This document shows, piece after piece, positions 19,553 through 54,178 of a stretch of DNA of 64,000 nucleotides. The first letter of the stretch is position 1. The number at the start of each line of letters is the position of its first letter. The position numbers and the translations under genes are program-made. Origin of the DNA: Bacillota bacterium (GTDB taxonomy: Bacteria; Bacillota; Proteinivoracia; UBA4975); assembly GCA_050949165.1 (NCBI GenBank), contig JBMNFF010000001.1, positions 1,059,185 through 1,123,184 on the forward strand, read 5' to 3'. The notes under the pieces were generated by a model. The model was not told the origin of the DNA. It saw nothing but the letters and a program-made list of their open reading frames with translations, and searched no databases.

Positions 19553-19583
19553 CTCCCTTCACTTTACCAGGTGCCGGGAGGGT

Positions 19584-20908: not shown

Positions 20909-20914
20909 CTAATT

Positions 20915-22144: not shown

Positions 22145-22266
22145 AAAAAACCCCTTCAGGTTTGAAAGGGTTCGTCACCCCTCATCTGCGGGAATTGGCA
22201 CCGTGCCCCGTGGCCGGTTGCCGGGTTTCATCGGGCCCGCCCCTCCACCTCTCTCGATAAGAGCTC
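22145..22266 (-). ncRNA. SAM-I (S-box) riboswitch with intrinsic terminator, leader of metK
   Basis: minus-strand sequence CTCTTATCGAGAGAGGTGGAGGGGCGGGCCCGATGAAACCCGGCAACC...GGTGCCAATTCC...GCAGA matches S-box consensus; followed by hairpin and TTTTTT. Confidence 0.85.
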
Positions 22267-28322: not shown

Positions 28323-28464
28323 ACCTGCGACAACAGGGATGTTTCAGATCGTCTCAAAATCCATCTCCGCACGCTCCCGGAACCAGGGAGGTAATCGGCT
28401 CTCGAGACGGCGCCCATAACACAACGGAAACAAATTTGAGACAGGTGCACGCGTCCCCGCTGTA

Positions 28465-29118: not shown

Positions 29119-29144
29119 TTATATTTCCCCTTAATCATTAGATA

Positions 29145-29168
29145 TGGCCAAGAAATATTTCTTGGCCA
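29145..29168. promoter_or_regulatory. 24-bp perfect palindrome TGGCCAAGAAATATTTCTTGGCCA upstream of the AT-rich-island gene
   Basis: about 27 nt upstream of the TTG start at 29118; candidate operator or terminator. Confidence 0.4.
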
Positions 29169-29400
29169 CTAGCCTCTATCTTCTAACCCTAGCGTACTTA
29201 GGGATATTGTTCTCCCAGCCGTTTACGGAACTACTTGTCCAAGCATGATAGTTGCTAGTGTGTTGAGCTACCTTATAGTCATAATAAGTTTTCCAGAATA
29301 TTGTACTCCTTATTATTTTATAATTTAACTATATTGCTACTTGATTAACATTTCAAGTATTTATATACAATAAATTTTTGTTTTAAAAGGAGGCATTGAA

Positions 29401-36830: not shown

Positions 36831-37874
36831 GTGGACTTACCACTGGTAAAGAAGTATAATTTCAATCTAGCCCAGAGCGTGTTGAAAGCGGGTGATACGG
36901 TGATAAAACTGGAGGGAATCAACAAGACCTTTCGGGTTGCCAAGCGCCAGTCCGGATTTGGCCGGGCGGTAAAGGCGCTCTTCTCCCGGGAATATGAGAC
37001 AATCCATGCCCTCAGCGATGTCAGCTTCTCCATCAAGGACGGAGAAATGGTGGGGTACATAGGCCCCAACGGCGCCGGCAAGAGCACCACTATCAAGATT
37101 ATGTGCGGCATCCTCACCCCCGACAGCGGCAGATGTGAAATCGACGGGCGCACCCCCTGGCGGAACAGAATCGCCCATGTCCGCAACATCGGAGTGGTCT
37201 TTGGCCAGCGCAGTCAGCTATGGTGGGATGTCCCGGTCTGCGACAGTTTTGATCTCATCAAGGATATCTACAAGGTGGAGACAAGGCAGTATCGGCGCAT
37301 CCTGGATGAGCTGATCAGCCTCCTGGACCTGGCCGAGATTCTCAAGACGCCCACCCGCAACCTCAGCCTCGGCCAACGCATGCGCTGCGAACTGGCCGCC
37401 TCCTTGCTCCACAGCCCCAGAATCCTCTTTTTGGACGAGCCCACCATCGGCCTGGATGCCGTATCCAAGCTGGCGGTGCGTCAATTCATCAGGGAACTCA
37501 ACGCCAGGCAGGGAACCACCGTTATCCTGACCACCCATGACATGCAGGATATCGAGGCCTTGACCGAGCGCATTCTCCTCATCGGCAAGGGGAGAATCCT
37601 CCTGGACGGCAGCTTGGACGAGCTTAAGAAGCGCTGGTCAGGACGCAAAACCATAGTCTTCGAGTATAAAGGCCTGACCCCAGCTACCTGTGAAGGTATG
37701 ACCACGGTGGAGGATCGCCCAGGACGGCTGGTAATCGAGCTGGAGCCCGACCTTTGCCCGGTATCCGGGGCCATCGCCCATATTTCCGCCCAGGTGGATA
37801 TCACCGATATTTCGGTTTCCGGCATCAGCGCCGAAGAGATGGTGGCGGGCCTGTACCAGGAGTACCGCATATGA
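36831..37874 (+). CDS. ABC transporter ATP-binding protein
   Basis: Walker A GPNGAGKST, signature LSLGQRMR, Walker B LFLDEPT; start codon uncertain (GTG at 36831, poor RBS). Confidence 0.85.
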   Translation: MDLPLVKKYNFNLAQSVLKAGDTVIKLEGINKTFRVAKRQSGFGRAVKALFSREYETIHALSDVSFSIKDGEMVGYIGPNGAGKSTTIKIMCGILTPDSGRCEIDGRTPWRNRIAHVRNIGVVFGQRSQLWWDVPVCDSFDLIKDIYKVETRQYRRILDELISLLDLAEILKTPTRNLSLGQRMRCELAASLLHSPRILFLDEPTIGLDAVSKLAVRQFIRELNARQGTTVILTTHDMQDIEALTERILLIGKGRILLDGSLDELKKRWSGRKTIVFEYKGLTPATCEGMTTVEDRPGRLVIELEPDLCPVSGAIAHISAQVDITDISVSGISAEEMVAGLYQEYRI

Positions 37875-38674
37875 AAGCATACTTGGCACTTTTCCGCATC
37901 CGCTTTATCAACAGCCTTCAATACCGGGCCGCCGCCCTGGCCGGCATGGCCACCCAGTTTGCCTGGGGCTTCATGGAAATCCTGGCCTTCTCGGCTTTTT
38001 ACCGGGCCAATCCCGCCGCCTTCCCCATGGAATTTTCCCACACCGTCTCGTACATCTGGATGCAGCAGGCCTTCCTGGCCCTGTTCATGGTCTGGTTCTA
38101 TGAAAACGAAATCTTTGCTTCAATTACCAGCGGCGGCATCGCCTATGAACTGGCCCGCCCGGCAGACCTGTACACCCGCTGGTTTTGTCAAGCGGCGGCC
38201 AACCGGCTGGCCAAGGCGGTACTGCGCTTTCTGCCCATCCTGATGGTCGCCCTGCTGCTGCCCCAGCCCTTTCGCCTGTCCCCTCCGCCCAATGCCGGTC
38301 AATTCGCCCTCTTTCTGATCTCTGCCGCCCTCAGCCTGGGCGTGGTGGTGGCCTTTACCATGCTGGTCTACATATCCGCCTTTTATACCCTCTCCGCCAC
38401 CGGCCAGCGCGTTATCTCGGCGGTGCTGGCAGATTTCCTGGCCGGGGCAATCATCCCCCTGCCCTTTTTCCCCGAGCCCTTCAGGAGCATCGCCGAACTG
38501 CTGCCCTTTGCTGCCATGCAAAACATGCCCCTGCGCATCTACAGCGGCAATATCGCTGGCAGCGCCGCCGGATGGGGCATCGGCCTGCAGGTGCTCTGGC
38601 TGGTGGCCCTGATCGGCATCGGCAAGGGAATGATGAACAAGGCTCTGGGCAAAGTCGTGGTACAGGGGGGCTAA
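37871..38674 (+). CDS. ABC-2 family transporter permease
   Basis: six predicted TM helices; ATG overlaps upstream stop (ATGA); follows ABC ATPase. Confidence 0.65.
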   Translation: MKAYLALFRIRFINSLQYRAAALAGMATQFAWGFMEILAFSAFYRANPAAFPMEFSHTVSYIWMQQAFLALFMVWFYENEIFASITSGGIAYELARPADLYTRWFCQAAANRLAKAVLRFLPILMVALLLPQPFRLSPPPNAGQFALFLISAALSLGVVVAFTMLVYISAFYTLSATGQRVISAVLADFLAGAIIPLPFFPEPFRSIAELLPFAAMQNMPLRIYSGNIAGSAAGWGIGLQVLWLVALIGIGKGMMNKALGKVVVQGG

Positions 38675-38675
38675 C

Positions 38676-39452
38676 ATGAGGCTGTATTTGAAGTTTGTCG
38701 CCATGCACATACAGAGTCAGATGCAGTACAAGGCTTCTTTCTTCCTCACGGCCCTGGGCCAGTTCCTGGTCTCCTTTACCGCCCTCCTGGGAATTTGGTT
38801 TATGTTTATCCGGTTCAACGAAGTGGAAGGCTTTAGCTTTCCCGAAGTGCTGCTATGCTCTGCCACCACCCTGATGGCCTTTTCCCTGGCGGAATGCTTT
38901 GGCCGCGGCTTTGACCGCTTCCCCCGGATTATCAGCAATGGCGAGCTGGACAGGATGCTGGTGCGTCCCTGGCCGGTGGTGCCCCAAGTGCTGGCGGCAG
39001 AAATTGACTTTTCCCGCCTGGGCCGCCTAATCCAGGCCGTCCTGGTCTTCAGCTACGCAATCCCCGCCAGCCAGATTCACTGGACCATTGCCAAGATCAT
39101 CACTCTCATCCTGATGATTCTCTGCGGCAGCATCGTCTTTTTCTGCCTCTTCCTGATCTACGCCGCCTTTTCTTTCTTCACCATTGAAGGCCTGGAATTC
39201 ATGAATGTCCTCACCGATGGCGGCCGCGAGTTCGGACGCTATCCCTATTCGGTGTACGGCAATGATGTGCTGCGCTTCCTGACCTACGTCGTCCCCCTGG
39301 CCCTGTTTCAGTACTACCCCCTCCTCTACCTTCTGGACAGAAAAGACAGTATCCTCTACATGCTGGCGCCCCTGCTGGCCCTTCCCTTTGCCATCCCTGC
39401 CTACGCCTTCTGGCGCTACGGGCTCAGCAGGTATAAATCCACGGGTTCATAA
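38676..39452 (+). CDS. ABC-2 family transporter permease (second subunit)
   Basis: 258 aa, multiple TM helices, immediately downstream of first permease. Confidence 0.65.
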   Translation: MRLYLKFVAMHIQSQMQYKASFFLTALGQFLVSFTALLGIWFMFIRFNEVEGFSFPEVLLCSATTLMAFSLAECFGRGFDRFPRIISNGELDRMLVRPWPVVPQVLAAEIDFSRLGRLIQAVLVFSYAIPASQIHWTIAKIITLILMILCGSIVFFCLFLIYAAFSFFTIEGLEFMNVLTDGGREFGRYPYSVYGNDVLRFLTYVVPLALFQYYPLLYLLDRKDSILYMLAPLLALPFAIPAYAFWRYGLSRYKSTGS

Positions 39453-39625
39453 AAGCGGTTGCCCCGTGCATCGTAAGATATGGTGGTGATGTCTTCCTCT
39501 TCTTGAACCTGTATCTGACGATCCAACTCATCATAGGTGTAGCTTACCACCGTCCCGTCGGGGTAGCATGAATACAAAGAAAACCCGGTTACCGTTTTAC
39601 TTAGTAGCCGGGTATAAGTTTTGTC
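39419..39625 (-). pseudogene. RHS/YD-repeat protein fragment (no start codon)
   Basis: minus-strand frame translates to ...YPDGTVVSYTYDELDRQIQ...TTISYDARGNRF... (two YD-repeat units) bounded by stops; lies in AT-rich patch. Confidence 0.5.
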
Positions 39626-39904
39626 TTAAAAGATATTTTTGCATCAGCCAGAGAATGCGCAACCTGCGGTTCTAAACTAGCTCTACTGCCTTAAATGAAT
39701 AGCCGGTAAACCTATTCTTTTCGAAAACATCTTTAAACTGCTCGGACACAAAAAACCTTTGCTTATAATCTTTCAAACGAATAATATCAAACCCTAGAAG
39801 TTTTTCCTTCTGCAATACATATTTGATATTTTACAGATGTTAAGCTGGTAGGACCTGCTGATGGCCAAACAGATTGAGGGAGCTTGTGTAAGCTCCCTCG
39901 TTTC

Positions 39905-41023
39905 TTATTCCGCTAATATCTCTACATTGGCCCGGGGCACGGTGACCCGCTGGCCGGTATCCAGGGTGACCTCCAGGACCCGGACCTTGGCCTCGCTCTC
40001 GATTTTCTGCAACTGCACCGGGAGGGCGCTGACCGCCCCCAGGCGGCCAAACCAGGGGGTGCGGATTACCCGGACCCGGGTCCCTATTTCCAGCCCGGTG
40101 GCGGCGGCCTCTGCCTGGACCGCTGCTCCGCCGGGCCGCGCCACCACCACTTCGGGACGCAGTACCCCGGCCCGAATCTGGGTGGTCCCGTTGATGGAGG
40201 CCGTCTCGCCTGCCAGCTTCTGGAAAAGAGCGAAGGTCTTCTCGGCCATGGGTATTTTGCCGAAGCCCTCGGTGACCACCAGGGAAAGGGGAATGTCCTC
40301 GTGGCCGGTGATGGCCACCCCGATTTCATAGCCCAGGTATTCATGGAGGTCCCGGTCCAGGACGCCGCCGCTGACCAGACCCACCACGCCAACTTCGCCG
40401 GCCCGCTGCAGGGCGTCGGCGGTGACCAGGGCTCCGCCTACCAAGATGCGGCCCCGATCCCCGTCCAGGATCTGCCGGGCAGTGAGGGTATCGGTGGGCT
40501 TTTTCACCGCAATGCGCAGCGTGCCGCAGCCTTCACCGCCGATGCCGAAGATGCCCTGAATCAGGGCGGCGGGGGTCTCCACCACCACCCCTTCCCTGGG
40601 CAGGACCTCGGTGACGGTGCCGGAGATATACGCCTTCACTGCCACCGGCGCCGCCGGTTCCCGAATGGTGACCTGGCCGGTTACGGAGGATATGTGCTCA
40701 ATGGTTCCCGTGGCCGGGGACTGGCACTGCCCCCGAAAAAGGCCGAAGAAAGCAGAATAACGGGCGATTACCTCCCCTTCCCGGACGCTGTCTCCTACGG
40801 ACTTGACCATGACCTCATCAATTTCCGAGGGCTCTATATTCAGCTGGTTGGAGACCGCCACCAAGTGGGGGCGGCCGGGAATAAAGGCCTGGGCCACAAT
40901 TGTTTCCGGCTCTACCCTCATGCCCCGCTCGACCAATACCTCCCCCTTCAGGGGCAGGCGCCTGGCCTTGCGGATAATGGTTCCCTCACTGACTGTCAAG
41001 CCTGGCAAATACGCGTCGCTCAT
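39905..41023 (-). CDS. hypothetical protein, last gene of 7-gene operon
   Basis: 372-aa ORF, start overlaps stop of upstream GlmL-like gene; Gly-rich segments, no recognised family. Confidence 0.5.
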   Translation of the reverse strand: MSDAYLPGLTVSEGTIIRKARRLPLKGEVLVERGMRVEPETIVAQAFIPGRPHLVAVSNQLNIEPSEIDEVMVKSVGDSVREGEVIARYSAFFGLFRGQCQSPATGTIEHISSVTGQVTIREPAAPVAVKAYISGTVTEVLPREGVVVETPAALIQGIFGIGGEGCGTLRIAVKKPTDTLTARQILDGDRGRILVGGALVTADALQRAGEVGVVGLVSGGVLDRDLHEYLGYEIGVAITGHEDIPLSLVVTEGFGKIPMAEKTFALFQKLAGETASINGTTQIRAGVLRPEVVVARPGGAAVQAEAAATGLEIGTRVRVIRTPWFGRLGAVSALPVQLQKIESEAKVRVLEVTLDTGQRVTVPRANVEILAE

Positions 41024-42822
41024 AATTTTCCCCCCACCAGCATCGGGTACATTCCCACCTGCTCATACCATTTGAGCAGCTGGCGCACCCGGGTTTTCTC
41101 GTCTTCCGCCAGGAGCAGGGGCCGCCCCCGGCAGTCCAGGAAGAGTCCGCACGCGCCCCCAGCCAATTTCCGGCGCAAGGTGCGGCCCCGGCCGGCGCCA
41201 ATATTGGCTCCCCCCTGGGGATGAAGCTCCACCTGGAAGGGGCCCTCCCCGGAAATTAGCTGGATTTCTCCCCAAGCCACGTCCACAGCGGCACTGCCTT
41301 TGTCCCACTTGACGGCGCCGCGAATTGCCCGCTCGCCAATTCGGCCCCTGCCTGCGGGCGCCACTACGGTGCCCAGGTAAATGAGGCAGTCCTTCTCGAA
41401 GACCTGGGTGGCTCCCTGGGGATGAATCTCCGAAAGCACACCCAACTGGGGCATCATGAAGATGCTATCCACCGCCAGCCGGGTCACCCCCTGGGGCTGG
41501 AAGGCGTCCACCATCATCATGGCGCTCTGGACCCGGCGCGGGGCGTGGGAAAGGGCGCCGCCGCTGCCCACCAAGAGATCCAGCTCCAGCATGTCGATGA
41601 AGGTTTCCTCGCCGCTGGTCTGTTGGAAGGCATCGCCGATGGAGCGCTGGCGCTGTACTCCCCGGAGCCCCACCGCCAGGGTCTTGTGATGGGCAAAGGC
41701 CAGCCCCAAGGCCTCCCGGGCGATGGCCTGCTCGATTAAGAGGTCCTCCAGGGTGTGGGGAATGGTGGTGGGGCGGATCATCTTGTTGCGGATGCGGTTC
41801 TTCAGCTCCGCCGGGGCGATGCTGAAGGGCAGCCAGCGCAGAATATTGTCTATCCCCGTTTCCACCAGCACATTGCACACGCTGTAACTCATGCCCAAAT
41901 TGGCGCTGACGGTGCGGTTAAAGATCCCCGCAAACATGGAGAACACGTCGGTGGTAGCGCCGCCGATATCCACGCCGATGACATTGATTCCGTTTTCCCT
42001 GGCCACCGTCTGGATAATCTTGCCCACCGCCGCCGGCGTAGGCATGATGGGGGCATGGGTCCAGTCCAGCAGCTTTTTATAGCCCGGGGCCTGGGCCATG
42101 ACATGCTCCATGAAGAGATTGTGGATTTCCTCCCGGGCAGGACCCAGCTCCTCCTTCTCCAGCACCGGCCGGATATTGGGGAGAAAGCGCAGGTCTGTCT
42201 TATCCCGCAGGAGTTCTCCCACCTGGGGTTGGGCATGGGTGTTGCCGCAGTAGATTACCGGCAAATTGTAGCCGCTGCCCAGACGAGGCCGGGGATCCGA
42301 GGCGGCGAGGATTTCCGCTATCTCCACCACATGGGAGACGGTGCCCCCGTCGATGCCCCCCGCCACCAGAACCATGTCGGGGCGGAGCTGGCGGATGCGC
42401 TCGATCTTCTGGTAAGCCAGGCGTCCATCGTCCACGGCAATGGTGTCCATGACGATGGCCCCGGCCCCCAGGGCCGCCCGCTGGGCGCTCTCGGCGGTCA
42501 TCTTCTTGACCACCCCGGCCACCATCATCTGGAGGCCGCCCCCGGCGCTGCTGGTGGCCAGGAACAAGTCCACGCCCCGCTCATCCCGGGCGGGAGTGAT
42601 GATGCCTCGGGAATCCATAAATACGCGTCCCGTCAATTCCTCCACTTCCCGGATGGCATTCCTGACCCCCATGGTCACATCTTCAAAGGGCTTTTCCACC
42701 GTGGTGGGAGCTTCGCCTCGCACCTGCAGACGGTACTCCCCCTGGACCAGTTCAATGAGTATTGCCTTGGTGGTGGTGCTTCCACAGTCCACAGCCAGGA
42801 TTACCTGAACAGGTTTATTCAA
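41020..42822 (-). CDS. GlmL/MutL-family protein (ASKHA-fold ATPase-like), long form
   Basis: motifs shared with glutamate mutase accessory protein GlmL as recalled: DCGSTTTK, SSAGGGLQM, QRAALGAGA, GGIDGG, EPAREEI, IMPTPAAV, VDIGGATTD; about 130-aa C-terminal extension. Confidence 0.7.
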   Translation of the reverse strand: MNKPVQVILAVDCGSTTTKAILIELVQGEYRLQVRGEAPTTVEKPFEDVTMGVRNAIREVEELTGRVFMDSRGIITPARDERGVDLFLATSSAGGGLQMMVAGVVKKMTAESAQRAALGAGAIVMDTIAVDDGRLAYQKIERIRQLRPDMVLVAGGIDGGTVSHVVEIAEILAASDPRPRLGSGYNLPVIYCGNTHAQPQVGELLRDKTDLRFLPNIRPVLEKEELGPAREEIHNLFMEHVMAQAPGYKKLLDWTHAPIMPTPAAVGKIIQTVARENGINVIGVDIGGATTDVFSMFAGIFNRTVSANLGMSYSVCNVLVETGIDNILRWLPFSIAPAELKNRIRNKMIRPTTIPHTLEDLLIEQAIAREALGLAFAHHKTLAVGLRGVQRQRSIGDAFQQTSGEETFIDMLELDLLVGSGGALSHAPRRVQSAMMMVDAFQPQGVTRLAVDSIFMMPQLGVLSEIHPQGATQVFEKDCLIYLGTVVAPAGRGRIGERAIRGAVKWDKGSAAVDVAWGEIQLISGEGPFQVELHPQGGANIGAGRGRTLRRKLAGGACGLFLDCRGRPLLLAEDEKTRVRQLLKWYEQVGMYPMLVGGKL

Positions 42823-42872
42823 ATCTTACCACCTCCCAGAGTTAAGGGCCCGCCGGAGCGGGCCCGTTCAGC

Positions 42873-43502
42873 TTATAGAATCGACAGCCACTCACCCAGC
42901 AGGAAGTAGATCCTGCCTACCAGCAAGGACATTCGGGCCATGACGGTGTTGCCGAAAGACGCTCCGAAGGCGATCATCATCACCCACTTGCCGATGCTGG
43001 CACCGACCTTCAAGGGGCCCTTCTGCTCCCGGGAGAAGTAGAAATAGATTAGAGTCCCCAACACACCCAGGATAAAGAGCAGGGAGTCGATGCCGAACTT
43101 GGACATCACGCCCCAGAGGGGCAGGGCCATGGTGGAGGTAATCTGGCTCATAAAGGAAGCCCCGATTACGCCCCGGATGGCCAGGGCACTGCCGACCCCG
43201 ACGACAAAGCCCAGGGGAATACGACTGATCCACTTCCCCGTCTTTAAGAAGCGGGTGTAGAGGAGCACGCCCAGGACCAGGGGCACGATCATAATCCACT
43301 GGCGGGGCTCACCCTCGGCCGGATTGACGAGCGGATTCCACGCGTTGGTGACTATGGACTGGTAACCATAAAAGATGCCGATCCCCGCCGCTAACCCGAT
43401 AAACAGGTGTTCAGCAGTGCGGTAAAAGGGGTTTTCTCGGAGCAGGTAGCTGAGAATAGCCAAAGTGCAGAGGGCGCCTATCCAAATTCCCAAGGTTTCC
43501 AT
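42873..43502 (-). CDS. polytopic membrane protein, unknown function
   Basis: 209 aa, 5-6 hydrophobic helices. Confidence 0.5.
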   Translation of the reverse strand: METLGIWIGALCTLAILSYLLRENPFYRTAEHLFIGLAAGIGIFYGYQSIVTNAWNPLVNPAEGEPRQWIMIVPLVLGVLLYTRFLKTGKWISRIPLGFVVGVGSALAIRGVIGASFMSQITSTMALPLWGVMSKFGIDSLLFILGVLGTLIYFYFSREQKGPLKVGASIGKWVMMIAFGASFGNTVMARMSLLVGRIYFLLGEWLSIL

Positions 43503-43536
43503 AATTTCACCTCCTTGCAGCTCTTTTCAATCCGGA

Positions 43537-44373
43537 CTAATCCTTCTTCTTCCTGCCCACGGCGACATAGGCGATGTTGCCGATGAGGATCAGGGCAATT
43601 ATCACCAGGTGGGAAATGGACTGGGCATCCATTCCGCCCAGACCCAGCCCCGGCCGGTCCACCAAGACCTCGTACTGAGCGGCGCCGCTCATACCCGCCA
43701 GCAGGCCCACCAGGTCTCCCGACTGGAGATAGGGGAGCATGCCGGGAACGGAAACGGCAGTGACGCCACCGGTGATGGTGACGGGATACTGAGAACCGAT
43801 CTGCTCGATATAGGTCCGAAGACCGGGATCACCGGCAGAAAGGCAGATAATCAAGTCTATGTCCTCGATGGTCTTGATATCCTTCATCATGGGGATGCTG
43901 CCCGTCCGGGTCCGGGTGACGTCCTCGGGGAAGGTGGCGTGGATATCCCGGGCCAGGGAATTGAGGACCACGGCCTGCCCCGGGCGATAGCCCAGGTTGA
44001 CATAGTCTTCGCCGTACACCGCCTCCAGTTCGGGAGCGACGGCATTGTGGACCCTGTCGGCAAAGGTGGCGCCCTGGTTCCATAGGGCCACGGCCACTAA
44101 CTTGTGCTTCTTTTCCAGGATGTGCCTGGTCACGGCTTCGGCCTGAGGCAGGAGCTCCGGAGCGCTGGCGGCATCCCAGTCATAGGACAGCAACACCACC
44201 GAACCGGCGGGCAGCCTATCCACCAGGTCATACACCGCCTGGGTGTTTGCGGTGATGTCAACTGGGAGTCCCAATGGGAAGAGCAGGGGCAGGACGATGG
44301 ACAGGAACAGGAGCAGGTAGATAATCCGCCGGTCGATGGTCTGCAGTTTTTCCAACCACTTCACTGATTTCAC
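43537..44373 (-). CDS. bitopic membrane protein with extracytoplasmic domain, unknown function
   Basis: N-terminal and C-terminal TM helices flanking about 200-aa soluble domain. Confidence 0.5.
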   Translation of the reverse strand: MKSVKWLEKLQTIDRRIIYLLLFLSIVLPLLFPLGLPVDITANTQAVYDLVDRLPAGSVVLLSYDWDAASAPELLPQAEAVTRHILEKKHKLVAVALWNQGATFADRVHNAVAPELEAVYGEDYVNLGYRPGQAVVLNSLARDIHATFPEDVTRTRTGSIPMMKDIKTIEDIDLIICLSAGDPGLRTYIEQIGSQYPVTITGGVTAVSVPGMLPYLQSGDLVGLLAGMSGAAQYEVLVDRPGLGLGGMDAQSISHLVIIALILIGNIAYVAVGRKKKD

Positions 44374-44402
44374 CTCCCTGTATGCATATTAATCCGGGGC
44401 GG

Positions 44403-45032
44403 CTACTGCCCGCCAAAATACGATCTGTCGATGCCAAAGATTACCCGCAGGGCCGTCACTATAGCGCCCAGGGAGGCGCCGATCATGATTCCCCGCATGC
44501 CGGCGGTGGTAAACACCGTCTGCAGCCAGCCCGAGTATTCGGGAAAGCCGCTCCATATTTTCGCTCCCACCGGAGTCGCTCCCAACATCACCACCACGGC
44601 GGAAATCAGGAGCACTGTGGCCTCCTTGGTCCTGATCCGGAAGGCCCTGTACGCAGCCGAAGCGATATAGAAGGCCAACAGGGCAAACATCGTCCCGTTG
44701 AGATGCTCAAAGATATTGCTGAACAGGTACTGGTAAACGGCGTTCTGCTGGGTCCAGATAATGGGGATTACGGCCATGACCACCATAGCCACCAGCAGGA
44801 TCAGGCTGTTCCACCATTCCTTCTTGCGCTTGACAATCCTCTGCACGTGAATCCGCAGGAGATTGGCTGCCCCCAGCAAGAGGGCAAAGGCGGCGATGAC
44901 TATTGCCCATTCCAGGAAGTGACCAACCACATATTCGGAGAGGAAGGGAATCTTGACAAAGTAGTCCAACAAGAACAGGATGCCCGCCACAAAGGTAATG
45001 GCAATTGGAACTTCGCGACGCACTTCTTTCAC
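44403..45032 (-). CDS. polytopic membrane protein, unknown function
   Basis: 209 aa, same length and similar hydropathy pattern as 42873-43502 product. Confidence 0.5.
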   Translation of the reverse strand: MKEVRREVPIAITFVAGILFLLDYFVKIPFLSEYVVGHFLEWAIVIAAFALLLGAANLLRIHVQRIVKRKKEWWNSLILLVAMVVMAVIPIIWTQQNAVYQYLFSNIFEHLNGTMFALLAFYIASAAYRAFRIRTKEATVLLISAVVVMLGATPVGAKIWSGFPEYSGWLQTVFTTAGMRGIMIGASLGAIVTALRVIFGIDRSYFGGQ

Positions 45033-45089
45033 CTCCTCTTCTTCCAGATGTCTGCGGGAACCGCTTTCCCGCAGGGACTTTTCAGCTCA

Positions 45090-45887
45090 TCATGACGAGA
45101 ACTTGACCAGGAAGTCGCAGATTACCGGCCAGTTGAAGGTGGTGGTGATGGTGCCCACCACGATCAGGATGATGGCAGCGATCTTGCCCAGGTCCTGGAC
45201 CTTGATTCCTGCAACCTGCATGGGATCCTGGGAAAGATAGGCGCCGGCGGCAAAGAGCTCTTCTCCAATCAGGCAGTAATCGCAGGCGGCAATGAAGAAG
45301 GGAAGCTGATGGGTATTGGCAGTGCCCGCCACCTGGATGGAGCCCGACACAAAGCCGCCCTCGGCAAAGATCAGGGATTCCGCCCAGAATGCTCCCATCA
45401 TGATGTTGGCGGCCACCTTTTCCCGGGCCATGATCCCCATACATCCGGCGGCATAGGCGAATTGCTCGTCGGACAGGAAGCGGATATTATCGGGGTTATA
45501 GGACTCCGGCTTGCCCTCGGTGAGGTAGCTCTGGCGCACCACCTCCTCGCTGATAGGCAGGACCTCGGGCATCCTGTTGGTGACGATAAGATCGGTGTCG
45601 TACTTGGCCGTCAGCCGGGACACATAGCCCAGGACCGCCAGCCCTGCCAGGGTTTGGGCTGCCGTCTCTTCGCTGAGGGCGGCGATGCCGGGGCTGAAGT
45701 GCACCGGGCGCCCCATCTCGGTGGCCCGGCCTACAGCTTCATCAATGGCCTCCAGACCGCTGATGCGGCGGATAAAGAACTTCTTGCCCTTTTTGGCCTG
45801 CTTGATGGTGATGAGCAGCACCACGGCAATCAGCAGGGCAAACACCAAGAGCGCCAAGCGATTGACCACAAAGATCTCTTCTAACAC
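45090..45887 (-). CDS. membrane protein, unknown function
   Basis: 265 aa with N- and C-terminal hydrophobic helices. Confidence 0.5.
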   Translation of the reverse strand: MLEEIFVVNRLALLVFALLIAVVLLITIKQAKKGKKFFIRRISGLEAIDEAVGRATEMGRPVHFSPGIAALSEETAAQTLAGLAVLGYVSRLTAKYDTDLIVTNRMPEVLPISEEVVRQSYLTEGKPESYNPDNIRFLSDEQFAYAAGCMGIMAREKVAANIMMGAFWAESLIFAEGGFVSGSIQVAGTANTHQLPFFIAACDYCLIGEELFAAGAYLSQDPMQVAGIKVQDLGKIAAIILIVVGTITTTFNWPVICDFLVKFSS

Positions 45888-46174
45888 TGGGTTTTCACCT
45901 CCTTGCCTTTGTTTCTATCCAACTCCTCGAGCCGGGAGATCAGCCTCTCCACCTGCTCCCGGTCGCCGATGAGGTTGGCGAAGTCCTCGGTATTGGCCTC
46001 GCCGAAGATCCAGTCCAGCCCTGGCGCCGCAATCTGGATCAGGGCGCCGCCAACACCAGCCAGGGGCTTGTGCATTTCCAGAAACATTATTGCGGGAATG
46101 GTCAGACCATGGCGGTTGATGCGTTGGGCGATTCTTTCCGTCAGCTGATTCAGGCGTTCTTCCATACAATTCAC
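45881..46174 (-). CDS. small protein with one hydrophobic segment, first gene of operon
   Basis: 97-aa ORF overlapping next gene by 7 nt; start codon uncertain. Confidence 0.4.
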   Translation of the reverse strand: MNCMEERLNQLTERIAQRINRHGLTIPAIMFLEMHKPLAGVGGALIQIAAPGLDWIFGEANTEDFANLIGDREQVERLISRLEELDRNKGKEVKTQC

Positions 46175-46412
46175 CTCATGGGATTACTGGTAAAATATAT
46201 TGAAGAGGTGTGATAAAAATGCCTAATCGAAGAAAACCCCTGGGACAAAGCCAGGGAAAACACCCTTGCCAAGCCCCAGGGGACAAGCAATGCGCGGATA
46301 TTACGATTTAAGCACCCAATCCACCCTTATTTATTATTTTCTTCACATGGTCCACTCCGCCAATATGTGGTATATTACCAGTAATATTTTAAGTCATAGG
46401 GAGTTGCATGAT

Positions 46413-47182
<770 letters not shown>

Positions 47183-47186
<4 letters not shown>

Positions 47187-49036
47187 AAATTCAGGCGCCC
47201 CCTCCCCTGACCCAAGCTCCGCCCCCCCGCGGCTTCTGGCAGGATTTTCGCCTCCTCGCCGCCACCCAGTTGCGCCTGACCTGGAACAAGCTCAGGCATT
47301 GGCCGGCCAAGATCTGGATTCTCATCATCATATCCAGCCTGGGCTTTCTGGGAATGCTGACGGGTTTAGGATTTTTGGCCTTCGGCGCCTTTGCCCAACT
47401 CTCGCCTGACACCGCCCAAGGCTTTTTGTCCCTGCTCTTTATGGTTGGCGTTGCCGCCGAGATGTTCTTCGGCATTACCGCGGCCTTCACCACCCTGTAC
47501 ATGTCCGAGGATCTGGAGTTGCTCTTCGTAGCCCCCATCTCCACCCGGGCGGTATTTGCCGTAAAAACCTTGGTGATAGCCTTCAGCAACCTCCTGGCCA
47601 CCACAGTCTTAATAGTCCTGCCCGGCCTTTTTTACGGCCTGCTCTTCAAGGCCTCCCTGGCCTTTTTCCTCTGGCTGCCGGTGATTGCCCTGGCCCTGCT
47701 GGCCATCGGCACCGCCCTGGCCGAGCTCTTAAACATGGTGGTCATGCGCATCGTCCCGCCCCACCGCAGCAAGGAAGCGGTAGGCGTCATCGGGGCTGTA
47801 TCGGGAATCCTCATCGCCATAGTCTTTCAAATTCCCAACCTGCTCCTGAGCAATCAGGCAAATATAAATCTGGACCAGTGGCTGGCCGCCCAGGAACAGC
47901 TGCTGCATGTCATGAACTACTTCCCCTGGGGGTGGAGCGCCCAGGCCCTGATTGAGGCCAGCGCAGGCCGATACTTGCCTGCCCTGGGCTGGACCCTGTT
48001 GGTCCTGGCCCTGGGAGCGGGAATCTTTACCCTGGCCTTCCTCCTGGTGGAGCGAGGCTTTCGCCGGGGTTGGATCTCCTTGAGCCAGGGTGGTGGTCGC
48101 CGCCGCAAGGACCGGCAAACTAAGGAGGAGCAAACCCAGGCCCGGAAAAGGCGCGGGGAAATCCCCGTCCTTCCCCAAACTCAGCCCTGGCCTCTGACCT
48201 CACCCTGGAACGGGATGTGGGCGGTGGCCAGGAAGGACCTGCTCTACATGAAGCGGGATACCAGGGAATGGTTCGGCTACCTGACCCCTCTCCTGTTGAT
48301 GTTCTTTTTCACCGCCCGGGTCCTCTTCTTTCCCGGGCCTGGCGCCGAGCAGAGCCTGGTTATGGTCCTGATTATGTACACCATCATGTTCAGCGGCAAC
48401 ATTGCCCTGCAATCCTTTGGCAGGGAAGGTGAATCGGACTGGCTCCTGAACAGCGTGCCCCTGGCCGGATGGCCGGTGGTGTGGGGCAAGCTCATAGGCT
48501 CCGTCTTGCCTACCCTGGTCCTGATGGAGGCGCTCCTCACCGGCACCGGCCTGGCCATAGGCCTTCCTCCCAACATCCTGGTGGCCATGGCCGTGGGGGC
48601 AGCCCTGATCTCGGTGGGCTCCAGCGCCATCGGTCTCTACTACTCGGTGAATAACTGCCGCTACAATCCCGACGCCCCCCAGCAGAGAATTGCCCCCGGC
48701 GCCACCCTGCTGATGTACCTGGTCAACCTCCTTTTCATCGGCGTGCTGGCACTTTGCCTGGTCTATACCTTCCCGCCCCAGGGATTGCTGGCCTTTGTCG
48801 GGGAACTGCCGCCGGCGCCCTTTGTCTGGGGATTCCCAGAAACCTTGATCTATTTACTTTTCCTCATCCTGGCTCCCTTGCGCTGGCCGCCTGCGGCGCG
48901 CATAGGCTTAGGCTTGCTCTTCACCTTGTCCCTCTGGCTGGCTGTGTTCTTCAGCTTCATGAAGGCCACCGTCCGGCAAAGCCTTAAGGGCCTAAGGGTA
49001 GAGCTGGTTACAAGCACAGGCAAGAAAAGGAAATAA
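47183..49036 (+). CDS. large polytopic membrane protein, putative ABC exporter permease
   Basis: 617 aa, about 12 TM helices with a basic cytoplasmic loop; GTG start overlaps ATPase stop. Confidence 0.55.
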
Positions 49037-49677: not shown

Positions 49678-50364
49678 GTGATTGCCGTGCACAAATGCCC
49701 CTGCAATAACACATGCGCGTCCCGGGTTCCTATCTTCCAGGGGCTCACTCCCCATGAGTTGGGCCGCTTCAACGATATCCTCACCACCAGAGAATATCCC
49801 GATAGCGAGATAATATACACCCAGGACAGTCCAGCCCAGGTTCTCTGTATCGTCAATTCGGGAGCGGTCAAGCTGTTTAAGACCTCTCCCGAAGGCAAGG
49901 AACAGGTCCTGCGCATCCTGAGTCCCGGGGATTTCTTCGGGGAAGCGGTGCTCTTCAGCCAGCAAACCCGGACCAGCTCGGCCCAGGCCCTGGGCCCCAC
50001 CAAGATCTGCCAGTTGGACAAGTCCCAGGCCGAAGAGATCATCCAGCGCCATCCGGAAATCGCCCGCAAGCTCATTGCCGCCCTCAACCTCCGCCTCGCC
50101 CAGGCCGAGGAGCAGATAGAATACCTGGGGACCCGCACCACCCTGCAGCGGGTGGCCCGCCTGGTGGTGGACCTGGCCCGGGAGCAAGGGGACAAAATCG
50201 TCACCCTCCCCCTGAGCCGGGAGGGCCTGGCCAGCCTCACCGGCATGACGGTGGAAAACTTCAGCCGCAAACTCAGCGAGCTCACCGAGCAGGGACTGAT
50301 CACTCCCCAAGGGCGCAGAAAGTTAGTTATAAAGGACTTGGAGAGCTTGGAGAAGCTGACATAA
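49678..50364 (+). CDS. Crp/Fnr-family transcriptional regulator
   Basis: N-terminal Cys cluster (CPCNNTC), cNMP-binding-like fold, C-terminal HTH (REGLASLTGMTVENFSRKL). Confidence 0.8.
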   Translation: MIAVHKCPCNNTCASRVPIFQGLTPHELGRFNDILTTREYPDSEIIYTQDSPAQVLCIVNSGAVKLFKTSPEGKEQVLRILSPGDFFGEAVLFSQQTRTSSAQALGPTKICQLDKSQAEEIIQRHPEIARKLIAALNLRLAQAEEQIEYLGTRTTLQRVARLVVDLAREQGDKIVTLPLSREGLASLTGMTVENFSRKLSELTEQGLITPQGRRKLVIKDLESLEKLT

Positions 50365-50403
50365 AAAAAGAACAGGTCAATCTTCTAAGGATTGGCCTGT
50401 TCT

Positions 50404-51399
50404 TTAATTGCTGAGTTCCGCCCTAAGCTGCAAGACCTCAGATATGGGAAGCTCAGACACTTGCGCCACTTGCTCAGGAGTAAATCCCAGCCGGAGCGCA
50501 TTTCTGGCTGCTAGTCTCTTTGCCTCCAGAATCCCTTCAGCCCTGCCCTCTGCCCTGCCTTCTGCCCTGCCTTCAACCCGGTACTTCTGCCAGGTTTCCT
50601 GCAAGATTCGTTCAAAATTAGTTATCAATGATTTTCCCCCCTTCCTTCTCAAATGGATCAGGACTCGATCACGGTCGTGTTTCTCCATTCCCTTTAAGAG
50701 TACCTTACCTGTCCACCTAGAAAAACGCCGTACATCTTCTTCCGGCATCTGATCCAAGACTGCAGCAAGCTCACCGATTCCAAACAGCACCTCATCCATC
50801 CCTCTGTGTTGCTCCATATAGAAGACACTACCCATCAAATTGCCCAGGGCAAGCAGCTGGCCCTTGCCATATCTATTTACATCAACGAGGATGTATTTAA
50901 AATCTAATGCGTATTTGCTAAAGAACTGAAATCCTGCCTGACATTGGCTAAAGCTTGTCCCCGCCGTCCATTTGCCTTTCCCATTGTATAGCACGCACGG
51001 GACAATAACCGGCAGAGCGAAACTCCCTTTACAGGCAACCTCATTGAACCAATAATTGCGCCAGATTTCCACCATATACATCAATAAACGAAAGGGCATC
51101 ATTTGATCGACGGTAGATTGCAATTCCAGCAAGAGATAGAAGTATACATCTTGCTCGGCCAAACGAAGCCTGTAGATCAGATCGGCCTCTTGGTGCCGAA
51201 AGTCCTGTAGTATAAAGGATTTTGGAATAAGCATTACGTCTTTCGCCTGAATGCCCTTGACCCACTCTGCCTTAACAAAGGTCTGCAAGAATTGCAGAAA
51301 GGTCGACTTATTGGCCAGCAAATACTTGTACCCCGTATCATGCTTATTGCTGGGGACCGCATATTCCTGGTCTGGCTCCCTAACCAAGGCTAAGGACAT
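50404..51399 (-). CDS. Rpn-family (YhgA-like, PD-(D/E)XK) recombination-promoting nuclease / putative transposase
   Basis: N-terminal HDxxYKxL and nuclease core pattern, C-terminal repeat-containing domain (EGRA x3-4 then LGFTPEQVA...LP) as in E. coli Rpn proteins; start moved to MSLALV at 51399. Confidence 0.7.
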   Translation of the reverse strand: MSLALVREPDQEYAVPSNKHDTGYKYLLANKSTFLQFLQTFVKAEWVKGIQAKDVMLIPKSFILQDFRHQEADLIYRLRLAEQDVYFYLLLELQSTVDQMMPFRLLMYMVEIWRNYWFNEVACKGSFALPVIVPCVLYNGKGKWTAGTSFSQCQAGFQFFSKYALDFKYILVDVNRYGKGQLLALGNLMGSVFYMEQHRGMDEVLFGIGELAAVLDQMPEEDVRRFSRWTGKVLLKGMEKHDRDRVLIHLRRKGGKSLITNFERILQETWQKYRVEGRAEGRAEGRAEGILEAKRLAARNALRLGFTPEQVAQVSELPISEVLQLRAELSN

Positions 51400-51524
51400 A
51401 GTAGCCGCCGCCTTAATAATAATGTTAGCACAGTTTCCAATAATATAATATAGGAACACGTGTTCCCTGTCTAGCTTATCTTTTCTCTGATGGTAGCAGA
51501 AATAGAGTCTCCAATTAAGCGGGT

Positions 51525-51773
51525 GGGGCTGTCGCAAAATGAGATATTCGTACATATTCTCCCGAAAATCTCTCCGGGTAGGGGCCGAAAGTATAAAGAA
51601 GGAGCTGTCGCAAAACTAAATCTCCGCGCATATTACCTCAAGAAAATCTCTGTGGGTGGGGGCCAAAAGATCCCCCTATAAAGGTAATCCAATGTAGGGG
51701 CGGGTTTTCCCGCCCGACTCACAAGAATGGCTAATTGGGGAATATGGCGGATTGCCAGTTTTGCGACAGCCCC
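51525..51773. mobile_element. MITE-like element bounded by inverted GGGGCTGTCGCAAAA(T/C) termini, with internal partial duplication
   Basis: left terminus 51525-51541, internal direct copy 51601-51616, inverted right terminus 51758-51773; no ORF. Confidence 0.55.
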
Positions 51774-51779
51774 TTGCTT

Positions 51780-53702
51780 TTACGCCAAGGCCTTTTCTAT
51801 TTCCGCCATGGCCCTTTCCTCCAGGTCGCAGCATTGCCGGACCAAGGCGAGGACCGCCGGAGCCTTGCCAGGGTCAAAGGCCTGGCCCCCGGGCCCGGTA
51901 AAGGGGACCAAGCGGGTTATCTCCTGGTAATTCGCTGCCACCTGGCGGTAGAGGTCAATTGTACCCTCCAGGCCCTTTAGTTCACCGGACCGGGCGGCAA
52001 CATACTCCAGGTATTTGGCGATGCAGGCCTTGGAGTCAGCATAGACGTTGAGATTATAGGCCAGGCCGAAGGGGTCGTAATCTCCCCGTTCCAAAGTGCT
52101 TATGAGATTGGCATAGGCCTTTCTGCCGCAGGCATACCCGGGAGTCGAGTGCTGCTCTTTATTCCACTCCCTCAAGCCGTATTCCAGGGAATCCCGATAG
52201 ATCTTCTCCGGGTCGACCTCCACCCTGCCCTTGAGAATCTGCACAAACAGGTATGGAACCTCGGATATGCCCAGGTTGCCATAGCTCAAGGGATCCGGAT
52301 CTGAGTTGAGGCAATCTTGAACAAACAAAACTTCATCGCCGTCATCATAACCGTCAATCAGGCCAAATTCCAGGAGACCTGTCGGCGCCCAGGTGATCGC
52401 CGGCACCCCCCTGGCTATGGATGCTTTGATCTTTGCCAGGGCATCCTCCTGAATCATATGGAAAGTGTTGAGCCTGGGGTCCCTGAAGACCAGGACTATT
52501 TCGCTGTGCACGCCAATCCTGTCCAGCATGGTGAAATGCTCCATCCCCCAGTCGTACACCGTCACCGAGCTGGGGCAGGCCGTTTCGTGCACGATGAAGT
52601 GAAAGGCCATCCCCGTCATGCCCATGAGTTTATAGATCTCGTCCTGCCACCACTCCACCTTGCGCAAAGCGCCGTCCACGCTGGCGATATATGAGTTCCA
52701 GGTCATTCCCATCTTCGCACCCAGTCGCATTGCCGCATCAGTACCTCCTTTAACAGGTTGTGGCTCCATTATAATCGACGGGGTAGGACATAAAGTGTCG
52801 CACCCCTCAGGCATATTTGCCAAAATCATCTTTTGTAGCCTGGAACAGAAGCGCTGCCGTAACCAGCGGGGTGAAAGAAGGGTAAATTGTTCTACCCCGG
52901 CTATAATTGCCGCCAGAAATTTGCTGGAATTTGTGAATTCCACTCTGTAGACCTGAGGCTCTCCAGAGGGAGATACCCGCAGCCCCGCCTTTCTCAACTG
53001 ATTCTCCCCCTGGGTTTTTACAAGGGCCACATAAGGCCTGCGGTAGTTAAAGTCATCTTTATATTCCTCCGGATCAAACCAGGGAACGATGGTAAACTCC
53101 TCGTCCCGAACCAGGGCGCCTCTTATCCGCTCCAGTTTAAAGATGCGGACCTCCCCGCGGAGTTCACAATACCCGACCACATAATTGCCATCCCCCTGAC
53201 AGAAGAATTTATAGGGGCAGATGATCCTGCGGGATTTTACCCCCGCGGCGCTGACATACTCTATCTCAACTTTATGCCTCGATTGCATGGCTTTGCTGAG
53301 GAGCTTATATGCCCTGACCTCCCGGGGACCGGGATTGATAATTGGTAAATTCCTCTCGCCTTCGCAGTTTCCTTCCCCGCCCAAGCGGGCAAAGAGTTGG
53401 GCCAACTGCCGGGCCTGTCCACCTTCCCTGTTTCGGTAGTGGAAGGCCAGGTAATCCAGGGTGGCCTTTTCTTCTGCCGAAATAAAATTGGCCGGCAGGA
53501 TAAAAGCTCCCCCTCGGTAAAAATACCCGTTGTTCCTGGGACAATATGCAACGGGCGCCCCCAGGGAGTAGCGCAAGTACTCAATATCCCGGGAAGCCTG
53601 GCGGGTAGAAATCTCAAATTCCTCGGCAATAATTCGGCAATTGGGATACCTGCCATGGCGAATCTGCTGGTCAATCCAGAGTATCCTGTGTAAGCTGCTC
53701 AT
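51780..53702 (-). CDS. HTH-WYL domain regulator fused to about 340-aa uncharacterised C-terminal domain
   Basis: N-terminal HTH (NCRIIAEEFEISTRQASRDIEYL), WYL-type beta domain (RRIICPYKFFCQGDGNYVVGYCELRGEVRIFKLERI), continuous 640-aa ORF; ATG with GGGGGTGA RBS. Confidence 0.65.
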   Translation of the reverse strand: MSSLHRILWIDQQIRHGRYPNCRIIAEEFEISTRQASRDIEYLRYSLGAPVAYCPRNNGYFYRGGAFILPANFISAEEKATLDYLAFHYRNREGGQARQLAQLFARLGGEGNCEGERNLPIINPGPREVRAYKLLSKAMQSRHKVEIEYVSAAGVKSRRIICPYKFFCQGDGNYVVGYCELRGEVRIFKLERIRGALVRDEEFTIVPWFDPEEYKDDFNYRRPYVALVKTQGENQLRKAGLRVSPSGEPQVYRVEFTNSSKFLAAIIAGVEQFTLLSPRWLRQRFCSRLQKMILANMPEGCDTLCPTPSIIMEPQPVKGGTDAAMRLGAKMGMTWNSYIASVDGALRKVEWWQDEIYKLMGMTGMAFHFIVHETACPSSVTVYDWGMEHFTMLDRIGVHSEIVLVFRDPRLNTFHMIQEDALAKIKASIARGVPAITWAPTGLLEFGLIDGYDDGDEVLFVQDCLNSDPDPLSYGNLGISEVPYLFVQILKGRVEVDPEKIYRDSLEYGLREWNKEQHSTPGYACGRKAYANLISTLERGDYDPFGLAYNLNVYADSKACIAKYLEYVAARSGELKGLEGTIDLYRQVAANYQEITRLVPFTGPGGQAFDPGKAPAVLALVRQCCDLEERAMAEIEKALA

Positions 53703-53941
53703 GTTTCACCCCCAGGGAAATGATAGACGTCCCTGCACTGTTCTCAGCCTTCTCCTGCCCGGACAAAGGGCCGGCTGCCAAAGAACAGTTCTGCGCGGGC
53801 GCATCCCAACCTCGGCTCCCCGACCGCTTTTTCCCAGTATAGCATCTGAAAAAATAAATTTCTAATTTGATTTTTATCATGTTTTCCCTTTTCTGGCTCC
53901 TCCATAATGAAGACAGAACAAAGGTGAAGGAGTGTTGAAGG

Positions 53942-54178
53942 ATGAAAAAAATTACCTTGTTAGGAGTTGAAGGGTGCCCCACCTGCGCCCGCCTGGATGC
54001 AAAGGTTCAGGAGGCCGTGGCCGCCCTGGCCGCCCCGGTAGAGGTGGAGAAGATCGCCGATCCCGCGAAAATAATGGAAATCAATGCCGGCGGTCTGCCC
54101 GCCGTGCTCGTCGACGGGGAAGTCAAGGCCCTGCGCCGGGTCCCGGAAGTAAAGGAGCTGGTAGAATGGCTGCAGTAA
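53942..54178 (+). CDS. thioredoxin-fold small redox protein (CPTC active-site motif)
   Basis: 78 aa, GCPTC motif near N-terminus typical of glutaredoxin/thioredoxin-like proteins. Confidence 0.6.
   Translation: MKKITLLGVEGCPTCARLDAKVQEAVAALAAPVEVEKIADPAKIMEINAGGLPAVLVDGEVKALRRVPEVKELVEWLQ

Follow-up and report, generated by a model that had tools for sequence, protein, structure and literature searches.

A seven-gene operon in a Bacillota genome

A stretch of 64,000 nucleotides (nt) from a Bacillota bacterium (GenBank assembly GCA_050949165.1, contig JBMNFF010000001.1, positions 1,059,185 to 1,123,184 of the forward strand), here called the window and used for all numbering, contains seven open reading frames (ORFs) on the minus strand that are tightly spaced or overlapping. 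We refer to them as g1 to g7 (Table 1). A first-pass annotation made from the sequence alone had described this group, at positions 39905-46174, as an operon of a small protein, four membrane proteins, a 600-amino-acid (aa) GlmL/MutL-family protein and a 372-aa protein. All of these ORFs were found at the coordinates given there, and hydropathy analysis confirmed g2-g5 as the four membrane proteins.

The gaps from g1 to g7 are, in succession, -7, 57, 29, 34, 50 and -4 nt. The g1/g2 overlap of 7 nt and the g6/g7 overlap of 4 nt, an ATGA stop-start whose overlap the annotation had already pointed out, represent translational coupling in a real operon. Each of g2-g7 has a ribosome-binding site of the GGAGG type in front of it, and the g1 ATG at 46165 follows a GAGGTGA sequence. 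Identical DNA occurs in a Bacillota metagenome-assembled genome (MAG; GCA_964472835.1, contig CAYYLV010000031) and in five Logan contigs, where the same seven genes are called. In the public gene calls g1, g3 and g4 start 9 nt later, yielding proteins of 94, 206 and 275 aa.

A hairpin past g7 is the probable end of the operon; because its T-run on the minus strand is poor, we infer rather than read its role as a terminator. At the other end, the divergent region between g1 and an ATP-binding cassette (ABC) transporter gene is presumed to be the candidate promoter region, and no consensus sigma-70 site was reported in it. For reasons that become apparent from the comparison with other genomes, we assign g1, g6 and g7 to a module A and the contiguous genes g2-g3-g4-g5 to a module B.

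Table 1. Features of the operon and of its surroundings in the window
Feature	Position	Strand	Description
g1	45881-46174	-	Small protein, 97-aa ORF, probably 94 aa from ATG 46165; module A
g2	45090-45887	-	DUF6754 membrane protein, 265 aa; first gene of module B
g3	44403-45032	-	Polytopic membrane protein, 209 aa (206 by gene callers); module B
g4	43537-44373	-	Membrane protein, 278 aa (275 by gene callers), predicted outward domain; module B
g5	42873-43502	-	Polytopic glycine-rich membrane protein, 209 aa; last gene of module B
g6	41020-42822	-	ASKHA-fold (actin/Hsp70/sugar-kinase) putative ATPase, 600 aa; module A
g7	39905-41023	-	Partner of g6, 372 aa, three domains; module A
Terminator-like GC-rich hairpin	39876-39899	-	10-11 bp stem, 4-nt loop, 6 nt past the g7 stop; probable operon end
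Divergent intergenic region	46175-46412	.	Between g1 and plus-strand ABC transporter gene; presumed candidate promoter region
Flanking ABC-type transporter operon	36831-39452	+	Outside the seven-gene operon
Flanking ABC-type transporter operon	46413-49036	+	Outside the seven-gene operon
Convergent spacer	39416-39870		Past g7; 450 nt, AT-rich
53-aa ORF	39416-39577	-	Resembles a YD/RHS-repeat fragment; possible gene remnant
raiA RNA motif	16271-16464	-	Rfam RF03072, full length, 182 bits, E 2e-46
S-adenosylmethionine (SAM) riboswitch	22179-22263	-	Rfam RF00162, 71 bits

Two separable modules recur in bacteria and archaea

The first-pass annotation had taken the putative ATPase and the membrane proteins as parts of one machine. 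They do recur together in bacteria and archaea, yet as two separable modules. When the six-frame ORFs of 81 loci centred on g7 homologues were searched with the seven window proteins, matches to g7 were found in all 81 loci, to g6 in 43, to g1 in 27, to g2 in 24, to g3 in 23, to g5 in 22 and to g4 in 21. At least three of the four B genes share the locus with g7 in about 19 of the 81. The loci that carry both modules come from Bacillota, Zixibacteria, Eisenbacteria, Latescibacterota, Synergistia, Bathyarchaeia and Korarchaeia-type archaea, and they differ in gene order and orientation. As to the co-occurrence of the seven genes, which the annotation had named as a check of its proposal, the ATPase and the membrane genes recur in shared loci across phyla, in rearranged form. 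The B block itself almost always reads g2-g3-g4-g5, with a single permutation (locus L055), and may stand upstream of g6-g7, downstream of them or on the opposite strand.

A second sample was centred on module B and comprised the 27 metagenome loci of at least 15 kb in which B lies at least 7 kb from each end. Genes g2-g5 stand together in every one of them, which defines a fixed four-gene block; g6 and g7 are present in only eight. In 27 of the 33 loci with both modules, these share a strand and are no more than 1 kb apart; the distance is 150 nt or less in 19, and in eight the ORFs of the two modules overlap. Closely spaced A and B modules thus usually share one operon, in varying order. By chance, a B block would be expected within 10 kb of g7 in less than 1% of cases, an estimate rather than a computed figure, and the proximity of A and B appears to be far above chance. 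Since the same genes recur together in many phyla, the arrangement is not accidental.

The stoichiometry of the modules varies as well. One A followed by three tandem B blocks was found in two Zixibacteria loci (L061, with the B blocks at 11533-21127; L069, with the B blocks at 11525-20855) and in a metagenome contig (L125), the tandem blocks being 38-55% identical to each other. On a 13.5-kb contig (L120), g7 is accompanied by three B blocks, three further loci (L106, L107 and L132) contain three B blocks and no A, and a Bathyarchaeota locus (L053) carries two A and two B. The triple blocks could provide alternative specificities or constitute a heterotrimeric assembly.

Relatives of these genes are present in hundreds of genomes from more than 15 phyla, including Bathyarchaeia and Korarchaeia. 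The g7 family comprises at least 8000 clusters at 90% identity, the g2 family more than 6000 in the cluster search and the g4 family 5423 representatives at 50% identity; when one genome was scanned per species, at least 595 g7 matches were confirmed. The best 80 g7 loci stem from Bacillota, Poribacteria, WOR-3/Hydrothermota, Zixibacteria, Armatimonadota, Eisenbacteria, Latescibacterota, Planctomycetota, Ignavibacteria, Synergistia, Coatesbacteria and Stahlbacteria and, among archaea, from Bathyarchaeia and Korarchaeia-type Thermoproteota. TA06, Cloacimonadota and Edwardsbacteria are added by the g4 matches. Archaea, monoderms and diderms alike are thus carriers, and g7 is absent from the plasmid collection searched. 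Homologues of g7, g4 and g2 also occur in cultured Anaerobranca species and in the cultured Alkalicella caledoniensis (HYG86_07025, _07040 and _07050, respectively), where the spacing of the locus tags is consistent with the gene order of the window.

In ten loci from Bacillota and archaea, g7 or module B adjoins the gene for a cysteine-rich protein (about 310 aa) that weakly matches DUF483 (for instance L010:12110-13066 and the archaeal loci L077 and L079).

Module A combines an ASKHA-fold protein with a three-domain partner

The assignment of g6 to the GlmL/MutL family stands at the level of Pfam, where it matches MutL (PF13941) over model positions 1-450 with 420 bits and an E value of 1.3e-125 (gathering score 27 bits). 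At a finer level it does not hold, as g6 stays below all three relevant NCBIfam cut-offs: it reaches 230.7 of 475 bits for the GlmL equivalog and 162.6 of 204 bits for the subfamily glmL_fam (NF040745/TIGR01319), and 212.5 of 600 bits for the GlmL-related ornithine degradation protein Or-4 (NF040744). Beyond the PF13941 core (residues 8-479), the protein extends at its C-terminus by about 120 aa. Both ASKHA phosphate-binding motifs, DCGSTTTK and DIGGATTD, are intact, and a single-sequence search of the Protein Data Bank (PDB) sequences found no relative. g6 is a putative ATPase and would be the engine of module A.

The 372-aa protein g7 had been listed as unknown. While it is true that no family could be assigned to it, three domains are recognisable in its AlphaFold 2 model (mean predicted local distance difference test score, pLDDT, 83.5), which has no whole-chain match in the PDB. 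The model predicts an N-terminal barrel-sandwich hybrid of the RnfC/NqrA type, a swivelling beta/beta/alpha domain in the middle and a C-terminal KOW/SH3-like barrel. At the sequence level the similarity to RnfC_N is sub-threshold (17.4 versus 25.6 bits; TIGR01945, 12 bits), and a profile search of the PDB sequences returned nothing meaningful. A phospho-histidine relay in g7 was considered and rejected: the sole candidate histidine (in GVAITGHED) is replaced by serine or glutamine in many homologues, and its position is not canonical.

The small protein g1, whose hydrophobic middle segment is conserved and whose C-terminal tail is charged, matches no family in Pfam or NCBIfam. Its homologues (91-172 aa) stand beside g6 in the 27 g7-centred loci mentioned above, mostly directly upstream of it. 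An eighth conserved gene, c9, is absent from the 64-kb window. It was found in 18 g7-centred loci, mostly directly upstream of g1 (e.g. L039:454-969 and L066:7278-7802), and encodes a protein of about 170 aa with two transmembrane (TM) helices and a C-terminal domain that looks PH-like by eye; no Pfam family covers it. Because module A often brings along this two-helix protein, we place the module at the membrane.

Three Bacillota loci have an additional, paralogous pair, g6' (638-663 aa) and g7' (450-483 aa), between g5 and g1 (L014:3370-6622, L034:4496-7763 and L039:4364-7679). g7' carries a duplicated barrel-sandwich domain and passes the RnfC_N cut-off. The presence of such a pair hints at hetero-oligomeric motors.

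Module B encodes four membrane proteins

Both g2 and g4 have one N-terminal and one C-terminal TM helix enclosing a domain of about 200 aa. The first of them belongs to PF20539 (DUF6754), a family without assigned function (337.5 bits, E 5e-101; gathering score 27 bits). From the distribution of charges, the N-terminus of g2 is predicted to lie outside and its Rossmann-like domain of about 200 aa in the cytoplasm. The opposite orientation is predicted for g4, in which both TM helices have basic cytoplasmic ends and the domain of about 215 aa lies outside. Natural variants back the deduced topologies of both proteins. In diderm phyla, the first TM helix of g2 is preceded by a cleavable signal peptide and an FN3-like domain; some g2 proteins of the archaeal or Bacillota type have a signal anchor and an immunoglobulin (Ig)-like or cohesin-like domain; and some g4 relatives carry an inserted CARDB domain within the outward part, or HEAT repeats. 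A B12-binding role of the Rossmann domain of g2 was discarded, as His63 is not conserved in a broad alignment.

The remaining two proteins are both polytopic, as had been noted. g3 has about six TM helices and a conserved motif, FALLAFYIASAAYRAFRxR, whereas g5 is glycine-rich and has fewer strongly hydrophobic cores. The similar hydropathy of these two 209-aa proteins, to which the first-pass annotation had drawn attention, does not translate into detectable homology (hhalign, E 0.04, probability 1%), and g2 and g4 are likewise not detectably related. An ancient duplication linking g2/g3 with g4/g5 is thus unsupported (E about 0.04, probability about 1%). Curiously, these pairs, which stand at matching positions, were the two best-scoring of six compared. 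One protein, P0429, was suspected of being a g4-g5 fusion and found not to be one.

No Pfam or NCBIfam family covers g3, g4 or g5, and Pfam scans of 19-20 homologues of each gave none either. Scattered sub-threshold matches of g3-g5 homologues to TMD0_ABC and 7TMR-DISM were judged to be noise from hydrophobic sequence. Profile searches of the PDB sequences with g2-g5 yielded no meaningful relative, and neither g3 nor g5 has conserved cysteine or histidine residues. Module B may form a membrane complex with about 15 or more TM helices.

Conservation decreases from the cytoplasm outwards

Over the 19 loci that carry g2-g7, the mean pairwise identity is 63.5% for g6, across bacterial phyla and archaea, 54.6% for g7, 45.2% for g2, 38.9% for g3, 36.5% for g5, 35.9% for g1 and 34.0% for g4. 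Conservation thus falls from the predicted cytoplasmic to the predicted outward parts (g6 > g7 > g2 > g3 > g5 > g4). By this measure g6 appears as constrained as a core housekeeping enzyme, and the parts assigned to the outside are the most variable; in some lineages the outward domains also vary by accretion, with the FN3-like domain on g2 and CARDB or HEAT in g4.

Relation to known systems

The first-pass annotation had recognised no transporter, secretion or pilus signature, and our profile searches bear this out: they assign none of the genes to such a system, nor to a defence system or a phage. In Pfam, NCBIfam, PADLOC and PHROGs, the only matches at threshold are PF13941 for g6 and DUF6754 for g2, and these are the only family-level identities that hold. 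PADLOC gave no match for any of the seven proteins, and PHROGs only a weak match of g6 to an actin-fold partition protein (E 0.002). ABC_tran, BPD_transp, ABC2, EcfT, EcfS and energy-coupling factor (ECF) families are not represented among the seven proteins, and the platform proteins of type IV pili or type II secretion systems (PilM/N/O, GspL/M) found no match among the window proteins.

A parallel in terms of fold is the large subunit of diol/glycerol dehydratase reactivases, DdrA/PduG. DdrA is known as an ATP-driven chaperone-like switch, and g6 plus g7 resemble a split version of it, as they combine a putative ASKHA ATPase with a predicted swivelling domain; the comparison made here is one of fold. 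In the present system, however, these domains reside on separate polypeptides, and g7 has two domains more, a barrel-sandwich and a KOW-like one. Neither a dehydratase nor a small reactivase subunit is present, the partners are membrane proteins, and g6 and g7 have no sequence relation to PDB chains. The N-terminal barrel-sandwich hybrid of g7 also recalls RnfC and NqrA, the peripheral subunits of the ion-pumping Rnf and Nqr complexes. Unlike these, the system has no NADH-binding, flavin mononucleotide (FMN)-binding or iron-sulfur domains, and its energy would come from ATP rather than from redox reactions. Neither g2-g5 nor their homologues match the membrane-subunit families of Rnf/Nqr. With no conserved cysteine or histidine in g3 or g5 and no cofactor domains, we rejected an Rnf-type redox machine.

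As an analogy only, ECF transporters and multitask ABC ATPases offer a comparable architecture, in that one ATPase module may be encoded together with one to three alternative membrane modules and the cytoplasmic parts are more conserved than those facing outwards. The ATPase fold is different (ASKHA instead of P-loop), and transport by the present system would itself be a deduction.

A possible ATP-driven membrane machine

From the gene structure, domain content, topology, conservation and co-location reported above, we infer a physical complex of A and B, its ATPase activity, the direction and nature of its work and the existence of a substrate. The complex is suggested by co-location and translational coupling. 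The reading that we tentatively favour, and regard as plausible if not quite probable, is that the operon encodes an ATP-driven two-module membrane machine in which module A powers interchangeable B units, probably a transporter or a mechanotransducer.

In such a machine, module A would be a cytoplasmic chaperone-like motor composed of the ATPase g6, its coupled partner g7 and the small protein g1, with c9 joining in many other genomes. The cytoplasmic Rossmann-like domain of g2 would be the likely docking site. Several features speak for this arrangement: module A has the membrane-associated proteins g1 and c9; the g2 domain is large, conserved and without a catalytic signature; overlaps between A and B genes occur in several genomes; and one A is encoded with up to three divergent B. 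Binding and hydrolysis of ATP by g6 would move the mobile domain of g7, which would act on g2; from there, g3 and g5 could pass the change across the membrane to the outward-facing parts, i.e. g4 and the extensions of g2. The outcome might be to move an external substrate or to act on it mechanically. Interchangeable B units would set the specificity, and the shared A would supply the energy. It is the combination of the one-to-three pattern and the variable outward domains, as in transport with a shared energiser, that favours transport of, or mechanical action on, an external substrate.

Several observations weigh against this proposal. Module B occurs without A, within 7-10 kb on each side, in 19 of the 27 B-centred loci (about 70%), and it stands alone in seven of eight B-centred contigs from outside the window species, which were found by exact protein. 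A solitary g7 was seen in the fetched locus in 15 loci of Poribacteria, five of Armatimonadota and six of seven of WOR-3; of the 27 loci from these three groups, 16 include 6 kb or more on each side of g7. Consequently, joint encoding is not obligatory for the two modules, nor even for g6 and g7. Furthermore, the cytoplasmic domain of g2 has a generic Rossmann fold without an informative relative, no conserved charged residue stands out in the TM segments of g3 or g5 that would suit ion coupling, and we know of no ASKHA ATPase that powers a transporter.

Alternative explanations

The frequent autonomy of module B favours the main rival, a link by pathway and not by complex, in which a soluble g6-g7 enzyme or chaperone of the hydantoinase or GlmL kind would serve a compound or protein moved by a self-energised module B. 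Most B-centred loci indeed have B as a self-contained four-gene operon. The superfamily of g6 is rich in kinases and ATP-dependent hydrolases, g6 itself matches Hydantoinase_A weakly, and its extreme conservation would be in keeping with an enzyme for a universal small molecule. The loci with one A and three B would likewise be explained if several B blocks supplied a single enzyme. Such an enzyme would, however, hardly call for the membrane-associated small proteins of module A, namely c9 with its two TM helices and g1 with its hydrophobic segment; the large conserved cytoplasmic domain of g2, which has no evident catalytic family, suits docking; A and B genes overlap in eight loci and in the window; and no conserved candidate genes for metabolising a substrate were found near A or B. 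We consider this alternative unlikely, albeit worthy of serious attention. Hardly credible, in our judgement, is the more conventional view of g6 as a standard GlmL-type accessory protein or as a reactivase that serves a coenzyme-B12 mutase, with the membrane genes as unrelated neighbours. It is true that the best NCBIfam matches are GlmL and the GlmL-related ornithine-degradation protein, that the Pfam family is MutL, and that g6 shares the full 450 positions of PF13941 and the phosphate motifs with GlmL and Or-4, the accessory proteins of glutamate mutase and ornithine aminomutase. Yet all three scores are far below the curated cut-offs, and g6 differs by its length of 600 aa, the extra C-terminal domain of 120 aa and its fixed partner g7. 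In a test for glmS/glmE, no B12-binding or mutase family and no other B12-dependent enzyme was called within 10 kb on either side of g6. Instead, g6 is paired with g7 in most sampled lineages and often linked to the four membrane genes, a link that recurs across phyla.

Two further explanations start from the membrane partners. The actin/ASKHA fold of g6 and its bitopic and polytopic partners, some with outward Ig-like domains, invite an analogy with PilM-PilN-PilO, MreB-MreC-MreD and FtsA, in which a cytoplasmic actin-fold protein works with membrane proteins; g6 might then polymerise on a membrane platform as part of a cytoskeletal or morphogenetic system. One g1 homologue even has a sub-threshold match to PilO (E 0.011, 16 versus 22 bits). 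PF13941/GlmL-type proteins, however, group with the enzyme/chaperone branch of the superfamily, which does not polymerise (PMC5597319), and no threshold match to MreB, FtsA, PilM, MreC or MreD was obtained. The occurrence of the system in archaea, monoderms and diderms, regardless of the type of envelope, argues against a wall-specific role, and we hold this explanation to be improbable. Even less weight is due to an accessory role in ion homeostasis or for a rotary V/A-type ATPase, with module B modulating or assembling an ion-translocating complex. In its favour, one metagenome locus (L096) has a B block inside a V/A-ATPase operon, and at the locus L045 an ATP-synt_F gene (PF01990, E 3e-14) begins 2 nt past a solitary g7; B blocks also lie near TrkH/TrkA and a KdpD-like sensor (L093) and near CNNM/CorC (L087 and L093). 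V-ATPase subunits are nevertheless found in none of the 27 B-centred loci, housekeeping genes separate B from the V-ATPase in L140, and the ATPase operon of L096 holds other unrelated insertions as well. The RCK matches reflect generic Rossmann similarity, and none of the seven window proteins matches a V/A-type ATPase family. We regard this role as very improbable.

The composition of these individual loci is recorded here for reference. The L096 operon (3743-20794; metagenome contig ERZ27247099 k141_455161) reads G, I, c, E, C(d), g2-g5, two unknown small proteins, F, A, B and D. In L045 (10001-11451), g7, with no g6 nearby, and the gene for V-ATPase subunit F lie amid glycosyltransferase genes, a pairing seen in no other locus. 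L093 (863-7800) contains genes for TrkH, four TrkA_N proteins (K+ uptake) and a KdpD-like sensor pair, and L087 (14507-16842) CNNM/CorC Mg/Co transporter genes; both neighbourhoods may be coincidental.

Novelty and significance

Within the library searched, no paper was found that mentions DUF6754 or PF13941 or describes such a gene cluster. Among the closest general sources are a survey of the actin superfamily (PMC5597319) and one of uncharacterised archaeal membrane proteins (PMC5898192), neither of which covers it. The system appears to be new in kind, while its member families already exist as unannotated database entries. With greater reserve than for the two-module machine itself, we consider it possible that the operon exemplifies an unrecognised class of primary ATP-driven membrane machine, in which an ASKHA-fold motor with a swivelling partner, rather than a P-loop, P-type or rotary ATPase, would dock onto interchangeable B units in many uncultured bacterial phyla and in archaea. 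Should module A truly power module B, ATP would here be coupled to work across a membrane in a novel manner, beside the ABC, P-type, rotary and AAA+ systems.

To our knowledge, none of the usual model organisms has the g6 ATPase, and this accounts for the lack of studies on it. Bacillota MAGs, Zixibacteria, WOR-3, Poribacteria and Bathyarchaeia belong to lineages that dominate anaerobic digesters, sediments and sponge symbioses, and the substrate of the system could bear on how its carriers feed or build their envelopes. Cultured carriers, i.e. Alkalicella caledoniensis and Anaerobranca, together with the small size of the proteins, make the system testable. Even if the idea of a complex fails, g3, g4 and g5 define three large families outside Pfam, and g6 a new GlmL-like subfamily.

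Other features of the window

The operon is flanked by two plus-strand ABC-type transporter operons, one encoding ABC_tran and ABC2_membrane_6 proteins and the other an ABC_tran protein and a 617-aa permease of the ABC_tran_2 family. These genes are not conserved as neighbours in other loci. The AT-rich spacer past g7, where transcription converges, includes the 53-aa ORF that may be a gene remnant. Elsewhere, the window contains a full-length raiA RNA motif and a SAM riboswitch, which presumably controls the downstream minus-strand gene (Table 1). The G+C content, about 0.60 for the window, dips to 0.51-0.53 at 28001-30000 and 50001-54000, segments that may be acquired islands.

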